Positions 30,549-52,766 of a DNA stretch of 64,000 nucleotides are shown here, piece after piece. The stretch is from IMG/VR virus record IMGVR_UViG_3300008952_002242, positions 1-64,000 of that record; one strand, given 5' to 3'. Origin of the DNA: an uncultured virus (IMG/VR IMGVR_UViG_3300008952_002242) (Duplodnaviria > Heunggongvirae > Uroviricota > Caudoviricetes). The translations under genes were made by a program, and so were the position numbers. The notes below the pieces were generated by a model, which saw only the letters and a list, made by a program, of their open reading frames with translations, was not told the origin of the DNA and did not search any database. Every line of letters begins with the position of its first letter. Positions within the stretch are counted from its first letter, which is position 1.

Positions 30549-31280
30549 TTACACAATTGAGCCTGTGGCTACTAATATATCATTTATATGACCCTTAGAT
30601 AAAACTTCTTTTTGTATCTTAGGATATATAGATCTGAATACATTTGATATTTGTGTAATTTTAGATGTCTTTACATCAGTCATTTCACGAATCATTATAT
30701 ATAAAGCTTTTTTATTGTAATTATCTATACTATCTTTATTTTTACACAAATACAATATTGATTCAGCAACATTTCTATCATTTTCATTTGGGAAAAACTC
30801 TTCTAATTTATATTCAAAATATTCAACAGTTTTTTCAAAAACTTCATTTGTTGGAGAAGGATCTAATTCGGTATCCCATATAGCTTTATCAACAACAGTT
30901 TTTATATCATCATGTGTTTTTAATTTTTTATAGTTAGCATTATTATTTAAGATTAAATAATTTTTTGCTATTATAGAAAAATAACTAAAAGCTTTCGTTC
31001 CACGAGTTTCATCAAACTTATGCATGTTTATTAATAAATTAGACACAACTTCTTCTTGTAAATCTCTAAATCCATAATCAAAATAACTAAACTTAAATGT
31101 ATTAATTATATTTTCAGCCAACTTCATAAATGCTGGATGGATTATTTCAGTATATATTTTATCTTTATACGGTTTATCAGTAGAATAGTTATATACTATA
31201 ATTGCTTCTTGTACAGGTAATCCAAAATATATTCTACTTTTCTTTTTCTTTTTTAATTTTACTGGTGGGATTTTTTTCAT
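30549..31280 (-). CDS. phage late-transcription sigma factor (T4 gp55-like)
   Basis: KLAENIINTFKFSY...MHKFDETRGTKAFSYFSIIAKNYLI resembles sigma region 2 of gp55-like factors. Confidence 0.65.
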   Translation of the reverse strand: MKKIPPVKLKKKKKSRIYFGLPVQEAIIVYNYSTDKPYKDKIYTEIIHPAFMKLAENIINTFKFSYFDYGFRDLQEEVVSNLLINMHKFDETRGTKAFSYFSIIAKNYLILNNNANYKKLKTHDDIKTVVDKAIWDTELDPSPTNEVFEKTVEYFEYKLEEFFPNENDRNVAESILYLCKNKDSIDNYNKKALYIMIREMTDVKTSKITQISNVFRSIYPKIQKEVLSKGHINDILVATGSIV

Positions 31281-31548
31281 CAACAACCTCTTCCAATGGT
31301 TCAAAAAGTTCTTCTAAATCGGAACTTAATAATTTTATTTCATCAAAAAAGAAACCGATTTCATCATCGGCTTCAAAATGACCTTTATCATCTATTAGTT
31401 TTAATTGTTGTTTTATATGTTCTACTCTATTATTAAAGTTTAGTATTATTGATTCGTATTGATTTATTTTGCGCAAGGCAAAAAATAATATTGTTGTTGA
31501 TGCTATGCATAATAAAAATAAAATAATTGTAAAAATTATATGTAACAA
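31234..31548 (-). CDS. membrane-anchored hypothetical protein
   Basis: N-terminal TM; D.KGHFEADDEIGFFF motif. Confidence 0.6.
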   Translation of the reverse strand: MLHIIFTIILFLLCIASTTILFFALRKINQYESIILNFNNRVEHIKQQLKLIDDKGHFEADDEIGFFFDEIKLLSSDLEELFEPLEEVVDEKNPTSKIKKEKEK

Positions 31549-31553
31549 AATAT

Positions 31554-31871
31554 TTAAGACTCACCAACTATTGTATCTAGAAATTCTATATCAAATAATT
31601 CTTCATCTTTCTCTAATTGGTTTTCCATAGAATTTAGATGATTCAATACTGTAAGTTTTCTTTTTTCTATAGCATCTAATTTGATAGGTAAATCATTAGC
31701 AATTAATTCACCCAATATAGTATCAAGTTCTAAATTTATATCTTTTAATTCATCTTTAACAGTAACTAATGATCCAGAGATTTTTTCATTCTCTTTTTCA
31801 TTTTTTTCTAAACGCGTAATTACCGAATCTAATAAGATCTTTATATCTTTATTTGGTGGATCCATTATCAT
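31554..31871 (-). CDS. hypothetical coiled-coil protein
   Basis: Intact ORF. Confidence 0.55.
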   Translation of the reverse strand: MIMDPPNKDIKILLDSVITRLEKNEKENEKISGSLVTVKDELKDINLELDTILGELIANDLPIKLDAIEKRKLTVLNHLNSMENQLEKDEELFDIEFLDTIVGES

Positions 31872-31882
31872 AAATAAATATC

Positions 31883-32245
31883 CTAATTTAATGATTTACT
31901 ACATATTTTTTTATCTCTCTTAGCTATAGTTTCGGCTTGCACTTCATATGGATGAGTTTTATAATTATAACCCATATTATAATATCTTTCCATCCATGTT
32001 GGTGATTGTAAATAGTGTTGATATTCATGAATTATAGTTTCAATTAAATCATCATAAGTATTGATATAATCTGGATATATAATTAAAGAATTATCATCTG
32101 CTTTATATTCACCCATCATACCTAAATCATCTTCACTAAAATCTAACCAAGGAACATCATCTTGGTGTTTAGAAAAACCATATGTATCCAAACACCAATC
32201 TAATGCTTCTTCAGCATCATCTAAACCTGTTTCCCAACAAATCAA
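31883..32245 (-). CDS. zincin-like metallopeptidase domain protein
   Basis: TIIHEYQHYLQ (HExxH) and HPYEVQAE third-ligand motif. Confidence 0.75.
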   Translation of the reverse strand: MICWETGLDDAEEALDWCLDTYGFSKHQDDVPWLDFSEDDLGMMGEYKADDNSLIIYPDYINTYDDLIETIIHEYQHYLQSPTWMERYYNMGYNYKTHPYEVQAETIAKRDKKICSKSLN

Positions 32246-32481
32246 TATATGTCCATTCCCAAATCGCTAAGAGTTTGTATTTCTTCACGACCATCACAAT
32301 CTGAATAATCATCCACTCCAAGATCATCAAGTTCATCTTCAGCATAATACTCAAGATTAACTCTTTTGTTCTTTGGATAATTAGGATCATCCTTCATCGT
32401 TTTTTTATCAATAGATTCCATTTGTTTTAAATCATCATCATTGAGTTCGTATTGTGATAAGTCTAATTTTACTTTTACCAT
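32242..32481 (-). CDS. acidic hypothetical protein
   Basis: ORF with GAGG RBS. Confidence 0.6.
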   Translation of the reverse strand: MVKVKLDLSQYELNDDDLKQMESIDKKTMKDDPNYPKNKRVNLEYYAEDELDDLGVDDYSDCDGREEIQTLSDLGMDIY

Positions 32482-32508
32482 TTTATCCTCATCGTTTATG
32501 TTTTAATA

Positions 32509-32550
32509 TTTGGGCTTGAAAAGAAAGGAAGAAAAGAATTCAAACCCGAA
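32509..32550 (-). ncRNA. hairpin with an 18-nt all-pyrimidine loop
   Basis: GGGTTTGAA-TTCTTTTCTTCCTTTCTT-TTCAAGCCC; a G.U pair supports the - strand. Confidence 0.4.
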
Positions 32551-32614
32551 GTTCTTTGGAGAACGATAACCTTTATATGCACTTCCAACACATAATAATA
32601 TAATGTATATTTAA

Positions 32615-33049
32615 TTAAGATACAAGCCTTTTATCAACCCTTTTTTTAAATCTTTTATACATTTTGTTTAAAGCTTTTCTTTGCTTCAATGTTAATTGAT
32701 TTCCATTTTTTAACCACCCATCAATACTTTTTAAAAAATCATCAGCACTCATTTCATAAGATGCTGTGTAATTACATTGATATAACATATGCTGTATTTT
32801 AGAAACTTTCTGTCGATTCACGTCAATCTGTTCTTTATAATTAGAATCGTTTTTTAGAAAAAAATATTTAGCATATTTCTTCACAGCTTTAACTACAACA
32901 TCATTTTGTTTATCTGTGAGTACTCTACCTTTTTTTAAATGATTATGCATATCGACAATAACAGACTTAAATCCTTTATCATTAATCCAATATATATCAT
33001 CACTTAACATATGTGACAATTGATCTTTTCGCTTACTAGCAGAAATCAT
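32615..33049 (-). CDS. hypothetical protein with two similar helical repeats
   Basis: KKGRVLTDKQ...KKY and KNGNQLTLKQ...KRF repeats. Confidence 0.6.
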   Translation of the reverse strand: MISASKRKDQLSHMLSDDIYWINDKGFKSVIVDMHNHLKKGRVLTDKQNDVVVKAVKKYAKYFFLKNDSNYKEQIDVNRQKVSKIQHMLYQCNYTASYEMSADDFLKSIDGWLKNGNQLTLKQRKALNKMYKRFKKRVDKRLVS

Positions 33050-33378
33050 TAATAACACTCACCTATTGTGTTTTCTAAACCACCATACATAAGTAAGGCG
33101 TTTGTAATTTCATCATCGGCATCCGTCCATTCTTCATCAGATGGATCTTCCCAATACACTTCGCCAGTATCATGATCGTAAATTTGAGTGATGTATGTTT
33201 CACCAAAATGTTCATACCAAACTACAGCCAAAGTATCAACAGGACCTGGATGATCGATGAGTTTTAACTCTTTCATATAATCCATAAGAGTTATATTTTT
33301 GAGTCTATGTTTACCATCAACATACTCATCTTTTGCAAGTAAGTAAGCAGTTCCAAAAATTGTTTCATTTAAGTTCAT
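33049..33378 (-). CDS. acidic early protein
   Basis: Start moved to the ATG after the promoter cassette and AAGGA RBS. Confidence 0.65.
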   Translation of the reverse strand: MNLNETIFGTAYLLAKDEYVDGKHRLKNITLMDYMKELKLIDHPGPVDTLAVVWYEHFGETYITQIYDHDTGEVYWEDPSDEEWTDADDEITNALLMYGGLENTIGECY

Positions 33379-33394
33379 TGTTTTATTCCTTTTT

Positions 33395-33441
33395 TCCATA
33401 TGTGAATATACATAAAAAAACAATACAAGTCAAGACTTTTT
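33395..33441 (-). promoter_or_regulatory. phage early promoter cassette copy
   Basis: AAAAAAGTCTTGACT-N17-TATATT; related copies near 35005, 37820, 38595, 44610, 44780, 44980, 45097, 50770, 51040, 53270, 61938 and 63102. Confidence 0.75.
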
Positions 33442-34223
33442 TAAATAAATTTATCCACTTCTCTTGATTCTTCAACTTCTATTTTTTGAATTTCTGCGGT
33501 GTTTATAGTGTCGGCAGGATAGGGATATAGTTTATGTTTTAGTGTTGATTTATATAGTCTATTTTCTTTTTTGTTTCCGATGAAGTAAAGATACCTATGT
33601 TTCTCTGCTTCCTTCTTCAACCAAAATGTTTTACCAATTTTCTTAATTAAATTTTTGGGTGCGGCTGAACCATATAAAGAATAAACGGTTCTGCTATGTA
33701 TCCATTCCCCATCTTCTGTTAATCTCAAACTGAATGTTGGCGCCATCTGTATTTCACCACACCCTTGATATAACCAATTAGTTGCTTGATAAATTTTACC
33801 TGTATGATTTTGTTCAGGATCTGCATATGATATTAATACTTTAATGTTTGGTGCATTTAACCTCAACCAACTAAACATAGCACCCAATACAAATGATTCT
33901 ATATTTTTACCATAACCATCATCAATATAAAGTCTTGTTAACTCTAATAGATTTGTTGTCTCTAATCCTATGTCTTCACTAAAGATAGAACCTAGCACTC
34001 TTCTACCAACTGGAAAACCTAGAGTCATACAACCTATCAATGTTTCTTTAGATTCATTTTCAAAAAATGGATGTGGAGAATCATCTTTATAAAAGATTCC
34101 TAATGCATATCTACATGAAGAAGATTTATGAGAATAATGTTTTTCAATAATTATATTCTTAGCTTGCTTCTTGGGTATTTGTTGCAAATATACTTTTGAT
34201 TTATCTACATATTTTTCTTCCAT
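33441..34223 (-). CDS. mom: Mom-family DNA modification (GNAT-like) enzyme
   Basis: IIEKHYSH, LELTRLYI...KNIESFVL, ISYADPEQNHTGKIYQATNWLYQG, KHRYLY. Confidence 0.8.
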   Translation of the reverse strand: MEEKYVDKSKVYLQQIPKKQAKNIIIEKHYSHKSSSCRYALGIFYKDDSPHPFFENESKETLIGCMTLGFPVGRRVLGSIFSEDIGLETTNLLELTRLYIDDGYGKNIESFVLGAMFSWLRLNAPNIKVLISYADPEQNHTGKIYQATNWLYQGCGEIQMAPTFSLRLTEDGEWIHSRTVYSLYGSAAPKNLIKKIGKTFWLKKEAEKHRYLYFIGNKKENRLYKSTLKHKLYPYPADTINTAEIQKIEVEESREVDKFI

Positions 34224-34254
34224 ACCATACCATTTGGTTATCGTTCAAATTTTG

Positions 34255-34326
34255 AGCGGTGTTAGGGAATCGAACCCCACCTTCTTCGTTGGAAACGAAG
34301 TGTATCACCTTTGATACTTCCACCGC
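34255..34326 (-). tRNA. tRNA-Gly(TCC), atypical
   Basis: GCGGTGG...CTTCG-TTTCCAA-CGAAG...TGGGG-TTCGATT-CCCTA-ACACCGC-T; G7.A66 mismatch, A at position 8, no encoded CCA. Confidence 0.8.
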
Positions 34327-34333
34327 AAATATC

Positions 34334-34397
34334 TGGGTGATTTGGTTGTTTTTTAAGTCATAAAATAGTGGAGACTAAAAATCGGTTAAACCACCCA
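34334..34397 (-). ncRNA. 64-nt two-stem hairpin RNA
   Basis: TGGGTGGTTT/AAATCACCCA outer stem (G.U on - strand), TTTTTAGTC/GACTTAAAAA inner stem. Confidence 0.5.
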
Positions 34398-34402
34398 AAC
34401 TT

Positions 34403-34458
34403 TATGAAGATTTCAACCCTAATACGGCTGACCGAAGTTTGTTAATGAAATCTTCATA
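34403..34458 (-). ncRNA. 56-nt hairpin RNA
   Basis: Perfect 13-bp inverted repeat TATGAAGATTTCA/TGAAATCTTCATA enclosing 30 nt. Confidence 0.5.
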
Positions 34459-34459
34459 C

Positions 34460-34878
34460 TTGGAAATTAAGGAGGGATGTGAGCCTGACATCTCACAAAT
34501 GCCTTTGATCTTGAATGATTTTAATACTCATGCAATCAACCCAATCGGTTATGATTGGTTACTTCTAAAAGTGGTTAACTTCGTTGAAGTGGACACAACT
34601 CCTGTCAATTCACCTTATCCATCACTCACGGATTATTAGGTAATAAAGTAAGAATCTCAGCTTTTACACCACGCTCTTACAATGAGCCAGAAAAGTAGTT
34701 TCTTTTCTTTAAAGACAAATCTTTCGGTTCACAATTGTTATTGATTCTTTTCACTCACATTCGAGCAATAGAGTCTACCACAGACGAACTTACTAAACAA
34801 TAACTCCCTTCTCTAGAAAAGAGTTTATTCTGTCAATCCCACACGAAGGTAGCAAGCCTTCGCGCTTCCTATTTCCAA
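34460..34878 (-). ncRNA. large (about 419 nt) structured non-coding RNA, family unassigned
   Basis: Ends pair (TTGGAAAT/ATTTCCAA); about 10 local hairpins with G.U pairs favouring the - strand; no - strand ORF of 60 aa or more; lies between a promoter and a tRNA. Confidence 0.65.
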
Positions 34879-34893
34879 ATTGTCAAAAATCTA

Positions 34894-34965
34894 TGGGTTG
34901 ATGCCAGAAGTATCAGCAGTACCGATACTAGCAGTGGTATGGATAGGTATACCCTAATCAACCCA
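34894..34965 (-). ncRNA. 72-nt three-way-junction RNA
   Basis: TGGGTTGAT/ATCAACCCA closing stem; internal GGTAT/ATACC and AGTATCGG/CTGATACT hairpins. Confidence 0.5.
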
Positions 34966-34978
34966 AATCTTATATCAT

Positions 34979-35008
34979 AATATAAGTATTTTTACCTATA
35001 CAAGTCAA
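34979..35008 (-). promoter_or_regulatory. early-type promoter driving the ncRNA/tRNA array
   Basis: TTGACT-N18-TATATT preceded by an A-tract. Confidence 0.7.
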
Positions 35009-35026
35009 GACTTTTTTTATTAATTA

Positions 35027-35641
35027 TTACCATAAAATATATGCACCATCATCAAAATTTTCATATTCTTTTATATCAAAATTTTCTTCTTTTAATATTG
35101 GTCTTGTCAAACACAAAAATTCTAAATTTATAGCTACTCTTGGAACATCCGGATCATTACATGGATTTGGTTTATGTAAAAACCAACCAGGCATTAAATA
35201 TAAATGTTTTTCTAAAGGTAAAAACTTTTTCTCCATACCATCGTCATCCATAATAGATAAAGTACCACTATCATCAGGTATTTGCGTATAATAAACTCCA
35301 TTTATAGTAGTTTTTGATGTGTGTCTATGCCAAACAGAATCATATCTTTTTCCAGTACATATATAAGAACAAGCTAAGGTTTTTTGTGGCCTTGGTAAAT
35401 GTTTATCTATATTTCTAAACCATACATAACATTCATCTTTAAATATTTTATATAATTTCTTAACATTTTCAGTATCAACCATACGTGTATTATAATGAAA
35501 AGCATCTAATAATTCTCGTTCTTTTGTATCACTTTCAATAGCTTCTATTGTTAATATTTTATTAAATTCATCTGTGATTTTTTCAGATAAATTTATTTCA
35601 ATTAACCATGGATTTCCACCGAATACTAAATTATTAGTCAT
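35027..35641 (-). CDS. 2OG-Fe(II) oxygenase (TIGR02466-like)
   Basis: WHRH...NGVYY, PGWFLHKP, RVAINLE. Confidence 0.75.
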   Translation of the reverse strand: MTNNLVFGGNPWLIEINLSEKITDEFNKILTIEAIESDTKERELLDAFHYNTRMVDTENVKKLYKIFKDECYVWFRNIDKHLPRPQKTLACSYICTGKRYDSVWHRHTSKTTINGVYYTQIPDDSGTLSIMDDDGMEKKFLPLEKHLYLMPGWFLHKPNPCNDPDVPRVAINLEFLCLTRPILKEENFDIKEYENFDDGAYILW

Positions 35642-36215
35642 TAGAAAATAAACCTAAAACCTTATTAACATAAAAATTGTCAGATATATAAGCATAACTA
35701 TATGTTCTTGTAATAGTTGGACCATGACTATAGCTTGTTAAAGCATAATACCAATCATCGCCAGAGTTATGATATAAATCAGATAGATACATTATACCAA
35801 CAGTTACATTAACATATGGGTCATATAAATCATCTTTAGGTGTTTTGAATTCACCATATGCTGTTTCAGGTTTTATTTGCATTAATCCAATAGCACCACT
35901 CTTTGATATTGCTTTGTGGTTCCAACTTGATTCGGTCATTATAACTGATTTAGCCAGATCATAAGGTACAGTATATTCATCACATAAGGCGTAAATATAA
36001 ATCAATACATGCTTTAGTTTGGATTTATTTAATGATGAATTGATTATATCAGCATCTTCAAAAAAATTTGGTTTGGTTTTTTCTACTTCAATTAGATTAT
36101 CAATTTTACGAACTACAGTTCTTATTGGAACTTCATACATATTTTCCATATAGAAAACTACTGCAAGAAAGGCGGTAAGTATTCCCATTATAAAAGTTGC
36201 TCTGGGGTTATTCAT
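35634..36215 (-). CDS. membrane-anchored lytic transglycosylase (SLT domain)
   Basis: VIMTESSWNHKAISKSGAIGLMQIKPETA...LYDPYVNVTVGIMYL...ALTSYSHG; N-terminal TM. Confidence 0.9.
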   Translation of the reverse strand: MNNPRATFIMGILTAFLAVVFYMENMYEVPIRTVVRKIDNLIEVEKTKPNFFEDADIINSSLNKSKLKHVLIYIYALCDEYTVPYDLAKSVIMTESSWNHKAISKSGAIGLMQIKPETAYGEFKTPKDDLYDPYVNVTVGIMYLSDLYHNSGDDWYYALTSYSHGPTITRTYSYAYISDNFYVNKVLGLFSND

Positions 36216-36669
36216 TATTATCTCCTGTTTTATGTTTCATATCTTTTTTAGTTTTTTCTTTATGACATTTTCTACATAAAGTCTGTAGATTACCTTCTTC
36301 CCAATAACTCCAATCTATTTGATTGGTTGATAAATCTTTTTGTTCATATAATGGTTTGATGTGATCTAATTGCCATTTTGAATCATACTCACCACAATTA
36401 GCACATTCACAATAATCTCTCTTCTTTATGTATTTCTTTATATGCTTTTGATTATAGATAAAAAGATATCTTTCACTACAATCAGGATGCCAACTAGCTC
36501 TATTGTTTCTTCTACCATATTCATCATTAATAACATCACCACACCACCTACATACACCTCTTTCCTTTACATCATAATAGGAATCTGGTTTAGGTGGATA
36601 GCGATAATCATTTTCGTGATAATCAAATTTGCGTGTTTTTTTCCCAAGAGTTTTTCTTATCCTTGGCAT
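36208..36669 (-). CDS. HNH endonuclease
   Basis: RDYCECANCG...QLDHIKPL...NLQTLCRKCHKEKT. Confidence 0.88.
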   Translation of the reverse strand: MPRIRKTLGKKTRKFDYHENDYRYPPKPDSYYDVKERGVCRWCGDVINDEYGRRNNRASWHPDCSERYLFIYNQKHIKKYIKKRDYCECANCGEYDSKWQLDHIKPLYEQKDLSTNQIDWSYWEEGNLQTLCRKCHKEKTKKDMKHKTGDNNE

Positions 36670-36675
36670 ATATTT

Positions 36676-36888
36676 TTAATTTAAAGTTTCTTCGTATTGT
36701 ACTGCTAATTCAGCACCAGCAAATAAAGCCTTTTCAATATTATCTTTAAGATTGTATAATTCATCTCTAGCACCGTCTACATAAGACCTTCCATCACTAT
36801 TACAATCATATTCTGGAATAGAATAGAAAGCGTCATCTAATGAACCTTCTATATTTTCCAATAAATTTATTATTTCTTTTAAAGTCAT
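36676..36888 (-). CDS. hypothetical protein
   Basis: ORF with AAGGA RBS. Confidence 0.6.
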   Translation of the reverse strand: MTLKEIINLLENIEGSLDDAFYSIPEYDCNSDGRSYVDGARDELYNLKDNIEKALFAGAELAVQYEETLN

Positions 36889-36921
36889 TTTATTTTTCCT
36901 TCTTTATATTTTATCTAACAT

Positions 36922-37176
36922 TTATACATCATCCCAACTTTTAATTACAACTTCAACCATACCATCATCCAATATCTCAAATTCACCGCCAAACAAGTCA
37001 TCATTATCTTTCAACAACTCATTAACCTTAGATTCCACTATGGATTCAGTTATTATAAAGTTCAAAGCATCTTCTACAGAAACTCCATCATCTACCATAT
37101 CATTTAAGGCATCTTCTGGGTTCATTAAAGTAGGTTCCGCTTCAACTTTTATTTTCATTCCACTTTTGTAAGTCAT
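36922..37176 (-). CDS. acidic hypothetical protein
   Basis: ORF with AAGGAG RBS. Confidence 0.6.
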   Translation of the reverse strand: MTYKSGMKIKVEAEPTLMNPEDALNDMVDDGVSVEDALNFIITESIVESKVNELLKDNDDLFGGEFEILDDGMVEVVIKSWDDV

Positions 37177-37198
37177 TTTTGACTCCTTTTTTTTATTA

Positions 37199-37570
37199 TT
37201 ATAAATAGTTTGGACCAGTCCATTGAAACCAATCAGTATTCTTATTAAAGATACTACCTCTTACCCATTTAGCGGGAGCAGCCCAACTAGCTGCTTTAAA
37301 TACATCTCCACATACATAGGTTTCCCCTTTAAATACACCATCCTTTTTAGCAACAAATCCCCAAACAGAATTACCATGTAACACTTTATCAAATTTTCTA
37401 CCAGGTTTTACTGATAAGCCATCCTTAAACTTATTCCTTGAATTTGTAGGATCGTCACTCCAATTTGAAGTCCAATTCCTATAATCTTCATTGATACCGA
37501 CAAGTAAATTATCTATCGCATTTTTATATTTTGATGGATAACTTTCGTCCAATACACTACCCAAATTCAT
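37199..37570 (-). CDS. conserved phage protein of unknown function
   Basis: GRKFDKV...SVWGFV...GDVFKAASWAAPAKWVRGSI, a motif common in T4-like phages. Confidence 0.7.
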   Translation of the reverse strand: MNLGSVLDESYPSKYKNAIDNLLVGINEDYRNWTSNWSDDPTNSRNKFKDGLSVKPGRKFDKVLHGNSVWGFVAKKDGVFKGETYVCGDVFKAASWAAPAKWVRGSIFNKNTDWFQWTGPNYL

Positions 37571-37767
37571 TACACCCCCCTTAAATAAGTGTTAACTGTT
37601 TCTAAATCCCAGGGTGATAATTTATTAAACCACACATCACTAAAATTAGAAATGTGAATTGGATAATCTGGATTAAAAGTTCCATCATCATCAACCATCA
37701 TTAGCATTCCTGATGATGTGTTAAATACATACCCTACTGAATCAAGAGTTTTTATGTAGTCAATCAT
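37570..37767 (-). CDS. small early protein (paralog of 38203..38541)
   Basis: LDSVGYVFNTSSG...VDDDG...WFNKLSPWD. Confidence 0.65.
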   Translation of the reverse strand: MIDYIKTLDSVGYVFNTSSGMLMMVDDDGTFNPDYPIHISNFSDVWFNKLSPWDLETVNTYLRGV

Positions 37768-38593: not shown

Positions 38594-38725
38594 TCAAGAC
38601 TTTTTTTTATATTTTTTATAATTTTTATGATTGATATCTAATTCAATCAAACAATTAAAACAAATAGTATAACCTTTAGCTATATCTATTGGTTTTCTTT
38701 TACATCTTTCACATTTATCTCTCAT
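38594..38725 (-). CDS. small zinc-ribbon-like protein (43 aa)
   Basis: Manual translation MRDKCERCKRKPIDIAKGYTICFNCLIELD...; TGATG coupling. Confidence 0.45.
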   Translation of the reverse strand: MRDKCERCKRKPIDIAKGYTICFNCLIELDINHKNYKKYKKKS

Positions 38726-52667: not shown

Positions 52668-52695
52668 AAAAATCCTAAATACAAATATATTTTTG

Positions 52696-52766
52696 AGCGG
52701 ATGGTCGGAATCGGACCGACATCACCAGCTTGGAAGGCTGGGGTAATACCATTATACAACACCCGC
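52696..52766 (-). tRNA. tRNA-Gly(TCC)
   Basis: GCGGGTG...CCAGC-CTTCCAA-GCTGG...GTCGG-TCCGATT-CCGAC-CATCCGC-T; T-loop TCC instead of TTC; no CCA. Confidence 0.88.

Follow-up and report, generated by a model that had tools for sequence, protein, structure and literature searches.

The window analysed here (64,000 nucleotides from the start of a virus record of 131,241 bases) carries a genuine array of non-coding RNA units, the centrepiece of which does not belong to a new RNA class. Its 419-nt main unit is in all likelihood a derivative of the manA RNA (Rfam RF01745) in which two cores are fused, and the array does not, therefore, represent the undescribed system for which it was taken in an initial annotation made from the sequence. 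We hold with high confidence that the 419-nt unit is a discrete RNA that does not act in cis. The array as a whole is interpreted, with somewhat better than even confidence, as a non-coding transcription unit of a phage that yields, as its core product, the fused manA RNA of approximately 420 nt; this interpretation starts from observed pairings and covariation, from the modularity of the neighbouring units and from the occurrence of the RNA in libraries made from seawater. The long RNA is best read as a discrete scaffold, a covalent manA dimer that probably oligomerises, and the term 'scaffold' in the initial annotation suits it.

Layout and transcription of the array

The units occupy positions 34254-35016 of the window, followed by mom, and all were found where the initial annotation had placed them:

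34979..35016, minus strand: predicted sigma-70-type promoter with an upstream A-tract; motif repeated in the genome and also at the same position in loci L145, L147, L186 and L188
35003-35008 and 34979-34984, minus strand: promoter hexamers TTGACT and TATATT (promoter scan and motif recurrence)
34893-34965, minus strand: junction (J) RNA, the '72-nt' unit, a three-way junction closed by a 9-bp stem
34880..34891, minus strand: boxA-like motif inside a 14-nt linker, conserved directly before the long RNA
34460-34878, minus strand: 419-nt two-core manA-like RNA (Rfam, homologs, covariation, RNA contigs)
34403-34458, minus strand: 56-nt hairpin (H56) with a 13-bp stem (folding, presence at homologous loci)
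34334-34397, minus strand: 64-nt hairpin (H64; covarying stem, homologous loci)
34254-34326, minus strand: predicted tRNA-Gly(UCC) (Rfam 42.1 bits, ARAGORN)
33441-34223, minus strand: mom, a Mom-family DNA-modification gene (Pfam PF25680, E 5.7e-44)

Each unit folds better than shuffled sequence; against dinucleotide shuffles the whole region has a z-score of -5.3 (20 shuffles) and the five units score -3.8, -2.9, -4.8, -3.5 and -3.6. Among the terminal stems said to close the units, that of the long RNA has a 2-nt bulge in it, and the claimed preference for the minus strand holds for four of the five units, H64 folding slightly better on the plus strand (-17.9 vs -17.2 on the minus). The linkers measure, in order, 14 nt (J to 419-nt RNA), 1 nt (419-nt RNA to H56), 5 nt (H56 to H64) and 7 nt (H64 to tRNA); the 14-nt linker, described like the others as AT-rich, is a conserved boxA-like motif and not filler. 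The region had been thought to hold no credible open reading frame, and indeed none is conserved in the long RNA among 38 homologs, where the longest stop-free run on the sense strand is 29-62 codons and lengths modulo 3 are split 9/13/16.

The array has an HNH gene, an SLT transglycosylase gene and the Mom-family gene as neighbours; in the window, the gap between the tRNA and mom is 30 nt and contains no predicted terminator. The units had been called unannotated and, at gathering level, Rfam reports nothing besides two tRNAs, but two sub-threshold matches to manA fall within the long RNA. The GOLLD, ROOL and OLE models have no match at E<=10 in 34200-35060, and at the same limit the minus strand of the J RNA matches no Rfam model. 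Y RNA, twister, pistol and HDV-like ribozymes and CRISPR repeats were considered for the small units and dropped, there being no Rfam support at E<=10. A BLAST search of 50,697 annotated phage records returned nine records, all of them short tRNA-Gly or chance matches, and self-search of the genome revealed no second copy.

The hexamers of the proposed promoter are present, but a generic promoter scan does not exceed chance (26 found vs 32.4 expected); the promoter is supported instead by the recurrence and strand bias of CTTGACT, found 14 times on the coding strand and eight times on the other, and five times with the same A-tract. The sigma-70-type family (CTTGACT followed by TATAT-like hexamers) is repeated before small hypothetical genes between 33434 and 63106 of the window, with near-identical copies at 38598, 50773 and 51042. 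We do not count TTGACA within the boxA-like motif as a promoter, since no -10 hexamer follows and many homologs have TTGAAA or TTGATA (by eye).

A query covering the array found partial matches (at most 0.39 of words) in 20 RNA runs from nine studies, all seawater or marine. Four runs from four studies were compared over 31700-37700 and, for the 16 of 21 contigs listed, all sequence falls within 34464-34878, except that one run has two short pieces elsewhere; the depth table gives the same picture. A contig of 364 nt without differences ends at 34878, the predicted 5' end, and two others end at 34870 and 34868. The query spanned all units, yet in these four runs only the long RNA is covered; RNA contigs give neither true ends nor strand, and we regard the coverage as a hint, not proof, that the long unit is a discrete, stable RNA. 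Absence of contigs over J, H56, H64, the tRNA and the flanks does not equal silence, because short RNAs drop out of assemblies. Of the discrete species proposed in the initial annotation, the long unit is the one that receives such a hint.

A probable two-core relative of manA

Pattern and neighbour-protein searches yielded 38 distinct full-length homologs of the long RNA, including that of the window, which are 50-90% identical to the window and located on viral and metagenome contigs; 15 representatives are less than 93% identical, and the RNA is 418-431 nt long (12 measured end to end). All 38 viral matches to a two-motif pattern are family members, the pattern having required both signatures, so that their presence in its loci is by construction. 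Among seven matches in genomes, six are unrelated and one is a member, located in a marine MAG where it may represent a mis-binned viral contig. Pattern matches dropped as unrelated numbered 19 of 23, 5 of 11 and 5 of 22 (two more are partial and outside the 38).

In the window, manA matches the 3' half at 34473-34659 (40.2 bits, E 9.1e-9) and the 5' half at 34679-34862 (26.4 bits, E 1.2e-4), both below the Rfam gathering cut-off of 55.2 bits. The 3' half reaches the cut-off in 12 homologs (L148 with 70.8 bits, L186, L187 and nine of 15 further loci). The 5' half never does: manA is the sole recurring family there, matching eight sequences (the window, L182, L183, L187 and four of the 15 further loci) at 18.6-26.4 bits, and the manA descent of core A is less certain for this reason. 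We consider that descent highly probable, because the signature is repeated with covarying P3 pairs, the GUGGU loop is present and the order of helices is identical. The signature (UGACUGAAUAA-type, between a 2-bp P3 and the P3 hairpin, then UAAGG) occurs twice, and the P3 pairs covary in both cores. A sequence HMM of half A scores 3.3 bits at most against single manA RNAs, and a half-A covariance model without the signature, run on 52 single-manA loci, gives no full-length manA match and two P9 fragments (E ~4); the half-A covariance model recovers the window-type 5' half (E 1e-4 and 0.006). A second core accompanies none of 91 single manA RNAs.

The predicted elements of the double RNA are as follows, with helix numbers mapped from the Rfam consensus:

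34867-34878 with 34460-34472, minus strand: P0, outer stem enclosing both cores
34836-34840 with 34473-34477, minus strand: P2, one helix for both cores, invariant in the type-2 alignment
34648..34865, minus strand: 5' half, core A (P1, signature, P3a, P4a junction, P9a)
34823-34835, minus strand: manA signature motif of core A
34777-34781, minus strand: L5a GUGGU loop of core A, in the P4a junction
34712-34718, minus strand: 5' strand of PX1, core A
34689-34708, minus strand: inner P8 hairpin, core A
34682-34687, minus strand: 5' strand of PX2, core A
34478..34643, minus strand: 3' half, core B (P4b junction with L5b, L6b and L7b; P9b)
34633-34643, minus strand: second manA signature motif, core B
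34621-34628, minus strand: L3b, pairing with J8b
34526-34531, minus strand: 3' strand of PX2, core B
34512-34519, minus strand: J8b, pairing with L3b
34499-34505, minus strand: 3' strand of PX1, core B

By comparison with single manA sequences, PX1 joins the 5' strand of P8a to the 3' strand of P8b, and PX2 the 3' strand of P8a to the 5' strand of P8b. Applied to 19 type-2 sequences, an unbiased helix finder ranked PX1, a long-range helix of 8 bp with five of eight pairs compensated, at the top, and also returned PX2 and a 6-bp pseudoknot; RNAalifold found PX1 and PX2 in six window-type sequences. For a structure of 88 pairs, 98.7% of cells in the 19 type-2 sequences are paired and two-sided changes occur in 45 of the pairs, compared with 32-42% paired cells in controls with slid partners, although the count leans towards the structure, which was drawn from the same alignment. 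P4a, P7a, P4b, P5b, P7b, P9a and P9b covary, and the order of the manA P4 multi-branch junction is preserved with P8 swapped. Core A has a tetraloop in place of L7, an invariant GACA in type 2.

A partner-swap test over eight lineages that are 51-76% identical counted the permutations, out of 40320, that pair as well as the observed one; with windows and counted structure chosen after inspection of the alignment, it gave four for P0, four for PX1 and 240 for PX2, and, for loop contacts, two for L3b-J8b and 48 for L8a-L9b. A random-window control returned p<=0.006 for four of 139 pairs, two of these lying on real helices by column position. The unswapped P8a and P8b hairpins do not pair (40320 and 29574 of 40320), and L5b-L7b and L5a-L6b are conserved in sequence with no covariation (24528 and 9360 of 40320). 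The polycistronic array of the initial annotation, which looked to covariation among homologs for support, is borne out as a series of non-coding modules that fold separately and are selected for their pairing; 38 full-length homologs show covariation in the swapped helices and two loop contacts.

Folding of the long RNA as a covalent manA dimer is well supported by these comparisons as a prediction. Equivalently, it is a complete manA (P1, P2, core A, PX1, P9b) into whose P8 loop a second core has been set in circularly permuted form. Such an RNA of ~420 nt probably arose when the manA core (P3-P4 junction-P8-P9) was duplicated within a single P2, after which the P8 helices would have exchanged partners and locked the two cores as a pseudo-two-fold covalent dimer. 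With manA (PMC2864571 and 10.64898/2026.07.01.735769) it shares the signature, the P1-P2-P3-P4 junction-P8-P9 order and the GUGGU L5 loop, as well as L3-P8 and L8-L9 complementarities, a marine phage setting and tRNA neighbours. It differs in having two cores in one P2 over ~420 nt, where manA has a single core of <200 nt, in its strand-swapped P8 helices and extra outer stem P0, and in being mostly without a downstream gene in its unit and not in a potential 5' UTR. No tandem or fused form of manA was found in the manA papers searched, in the main text of the preprint or in a term search of the supplements of the 2010 paper, where only the alignment header matched.

The leader motif and the companion units

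A boxA-like motif (consensus G-A/T-T-T/C-TTTGA-A/C/T-AA) stands before all 38 doubles, 37 with TTTGA(A/C/T)AA and one variant, compared with none of 104 single manA RNAs, and has one coding-strand copy in the whole 131-kb genome. In approximately 23 of 26 loci from L212 on (by eye), a short hairpin lies just 5' of it. Hairpin followed by boxA is the layout reported for B. subtilis rrn leaders (PMC13753749), and the sequence of short hairpin, boxA-like motif, end-closed long RNA, then small RNAs or tRNA resembles an rRNA operon leader (PMC10250234, PMC13753749 and PMC5725501). The rrn boxA consensus is given as GYTCTTTAANA or GATCTTTGAAA (PMC5725501 and PMC13753749); in 34 of 38 cases the array motif carries U where this E. 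coli/B. subtilis consensus has its conserved C, with GTTCTTTGACAA in three and one further variant. Twelve rRNA leaders from the family of one copy-bearing MAG, which need not be the host's family, have canonical GCTCTTTAAAA in four cases and TTTTTTGACAA further upstream in one, and the comparison gave no match to a host group. Identity of the motif with boxA is, in our view, an even call, and by analogy a role as a NusB/NusE antitermination or folding signal is possible. Just upstream of the double manA in L182 (1080-1330, minus strand) there is a second boxA-like motif and a segment of ~250 nt with a terminal stem and further small hairpins upstream, for which Rfam gave no match at E<=0.05.

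The units around the long RNA are modular, and the order given in the initial annotation is not that of a fixed toolkit, the conserved core consisting of the long RNA and H64 only (37 of 38 loci). The J RNA is optional (8/38), most other loci having the short hairpin before the boxA-like motif in its place, and H56 is an optional insert (3/38, two distinct sequences). L229, the one locus in which H64 does not follow the long RNA, carries a hairpin that is diverged but has the shape of H64, and H64 accompanies none of 91 single manA RNAs. The outer stem of H64 varies freely and covaries (13 of 14 predicted pairs with two-sided change, 20 sequences), whereas its inner stem and 11-14-nt loop (YCCAC/CUCAC) are conserved; since the outer stem covaries and H64 also occurs without the long RNA, before SLT genes at seven loci, it stands as an independent RNA unit. 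A U-tract ends the unit right after H64 in 25 of 38 loci. In L192 (290-425) and L196 (3410-3549) a promoter leads straight to H64 and an SLT gene, as if J, leader motif and long RNA had been deleted as a block. No manA was detected in five partial SLT-gene records (four with H64 alone), which are 7-72% complete and in which the control was silent.

Of the elements of the long RNA, L5a pairs most strongly on average with the H64 loop (-5.75 kcal/mol; permutation p 0.16), and in L013, L147, L174 and L186 a G-to-A change at the first position of L5a is uncompensated by that loop. We keep as a lead only that the L5a loop, which is unpartnered, may be the docking site of H64.

The array tRNA, predicted to be tRNA-Gly(UCC), has a cloverleaf, UCC anticodon, Gly acceptor pairs and U73, with A8 for U8 and a G7-A66 mismatch; what we take to be the Gly identity elements (G1-C72, C2-G71, G3-C70 and U73) are intact. 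Together with 52695-52766 it makes up the genome's entire set of two tRNAs, both Gly(UCC), and GGA accounts for 620 of 2053 Gly codons in long ORFs. A8 for U8 is also present in a diverged tRNA of L186 (2106-2177). tRNA-Gly and mom are optional, occurring at 4 of 38 loci each. A unit of ~45 nt starting GUGGUUAU is common to L174 (~1000-1050) and L182 (~1340-1390) on the minus strand, where an H-type pseudoknot is possible with stems that differ from one locus to the other but remain complementary (by eye). Upstream of the SLT gene of a more distant relative, L206 (130-195) has a 3' end resembling that of tmRNA.

Assembly, rival readings and timing

In the reading we prefer, a host-type promoter would fire to give a long untranslated RNA; the hairpin and boxA-like leader would recruit Nus factors as in rRNA operons and protect or chaperone the RNA, and host RNases would cut at the terminal stems to release the long RNA, small hairpins and tRNA. 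rRNA operons provide the parallel for leader and terminal-stem processing (PMC10250234). Single manA RNAs form octamers, decamers and a 60-mer built from pentamers in vitro, the only setting in which manA cages have so far been seen, through L5-L7', L8-L9', L3-L8' and L6-P6' contacts resolved by cryo-EM (10.64898/2026.07.01.735769, main text). The covarying L3b-J8b and L8a-L9b contacts appear to match inter-subunit contacts of these cages: the former (L3-L8 type) has 8 bp in the window and is fully compensated in L145, and the latter covaries, though little of it is left in the window (-0.3 kcal/mol) and it is weak in L186 and L187. Retained kissing contacts (L3b-J8b, L8a-L9b, L5b-L7b) between chains could then close an oligomer that resembles the manA decamer or 60-mer but contains half the number of chains. 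Whether the double RNA oligomerises we put at even odds; a cargo role for the particle is doubtful, and storage or shielding of RNA or protein during infection is a guess at its job.

Covariation is blind to whether contacts form within or between chains, and the same contacts could instead satisfy a monomer, formed between cores A and B of one chain to give a compact RNA that binds a protein of host or phage, and no cage. L8a-L9b and J8b-L3b do link elements of both halves, and loss of the core A L7 kissing loop to the invariant GACA tetraloop (type 2) means that a two-core ring cannot use L5-L7' throughout; against this, L5b-L7b and the loop geometry mirror the between-subunit contacts of solved single manA (10.64898/2026.07.01.735769, main text), and we consider the monomer rather unlikely. 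A tandem cis-regulatory, riboswitch-like element controlling the downstream mom or SLT gene would accord with how manA was first described (Weinberg et al. 2010, PMC2864571), namely as a motif of 5' UTRs that probably regulates in cis, and there is no predicted terminator before mom, with SLT genes next in several loci. Such a role fits the double RNA poorly and is disfavoured by context, to the point of being highly improbable, given the U-tract right after H64 in 25 of 38 loci, a downstream gene that varies among loci, one to three other RNA units between the long RNA and any start codon (two hairpins and the tRNA in the window) and RNA contigs that stop at the long unit.

The initial annotation itself favoured a toolkit, in which the small units would be guides or decoys pairing with phage or host mRNAs and the long RNA their carrier. 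The units are gained and lost independently, as a toolkit would allow, and H64, which is also found by itself, exposes a conserved loop, but the loops are either conserved or AT-rich and do not vary as spacers would, the strongest mean partner of the H64 loop in the long RNA is L5a, and no target in the phage genome exceeds chance: complements of H56 and H64 on the phage coding strand are equalled by 56 and 60 of 100 shuffles, and a 14-nt match of the J RNA (3 of 100 shuffles) sits in its own stem. A guide or decoy toolkit is accordingly very unlikely.

Beyond the preferred scaffold, we entertain as a speculative and quite unlikely extension a two-component, RNA-only cage of the covalent manA dimer with H64 as a plug on L5a, fed by boxA-dependent, rRNA-like synthesis. 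Each chain would contribute two non-equivalent cores, for example five chains in a decamer-like or 30 in a 60-mer-like particle, and H64 would plug L5a through GUGG/CCAC (AUAG/CUAU in one lineage), both details sharing the low probability of the whole. If true, the particle would consist of two components, both RNA, and would be produced in the manner of ribosomal RNA. The double RNA resembles ROOL and GOLLD in being a large, ornate phage RNA close to tRNAs; those two form RNA-only nanocages (10.1101/2024.12.08.627333). It differs in having no match to their Rfam models at E<=10, their lengths being 659 and >800 nt and their fold another. Two types of cage contact have seemingly been kept by compensatory change among lineages 51-76% identical, in an RNA outside 5' UTRs, which, with its presence in seawater RNA, argues that manA-type RNAs are structural and not riboswitches. 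The fused dimer tests the pentamer rule, since two-core chains cannot tile a five-membered ring alike, and offers, besides a ready cryo-EM target, a case from nature in which gene duplication in an RNA went together with swapped strands.

Expression of the array had been called early, which is plausible for this genome only, as a late-type motif precedes 17 of the 38 homologs. The motif, TATAAAT(A/G), which we take to be a late-type promoter motif as in T4, lies <=80 nt upstream of the long RNA. Positions 30549-31304 of the window have a weak match to the late sigma factor family phrog_234 (E 3.6e-5), which fits with the occurrence of this motif.
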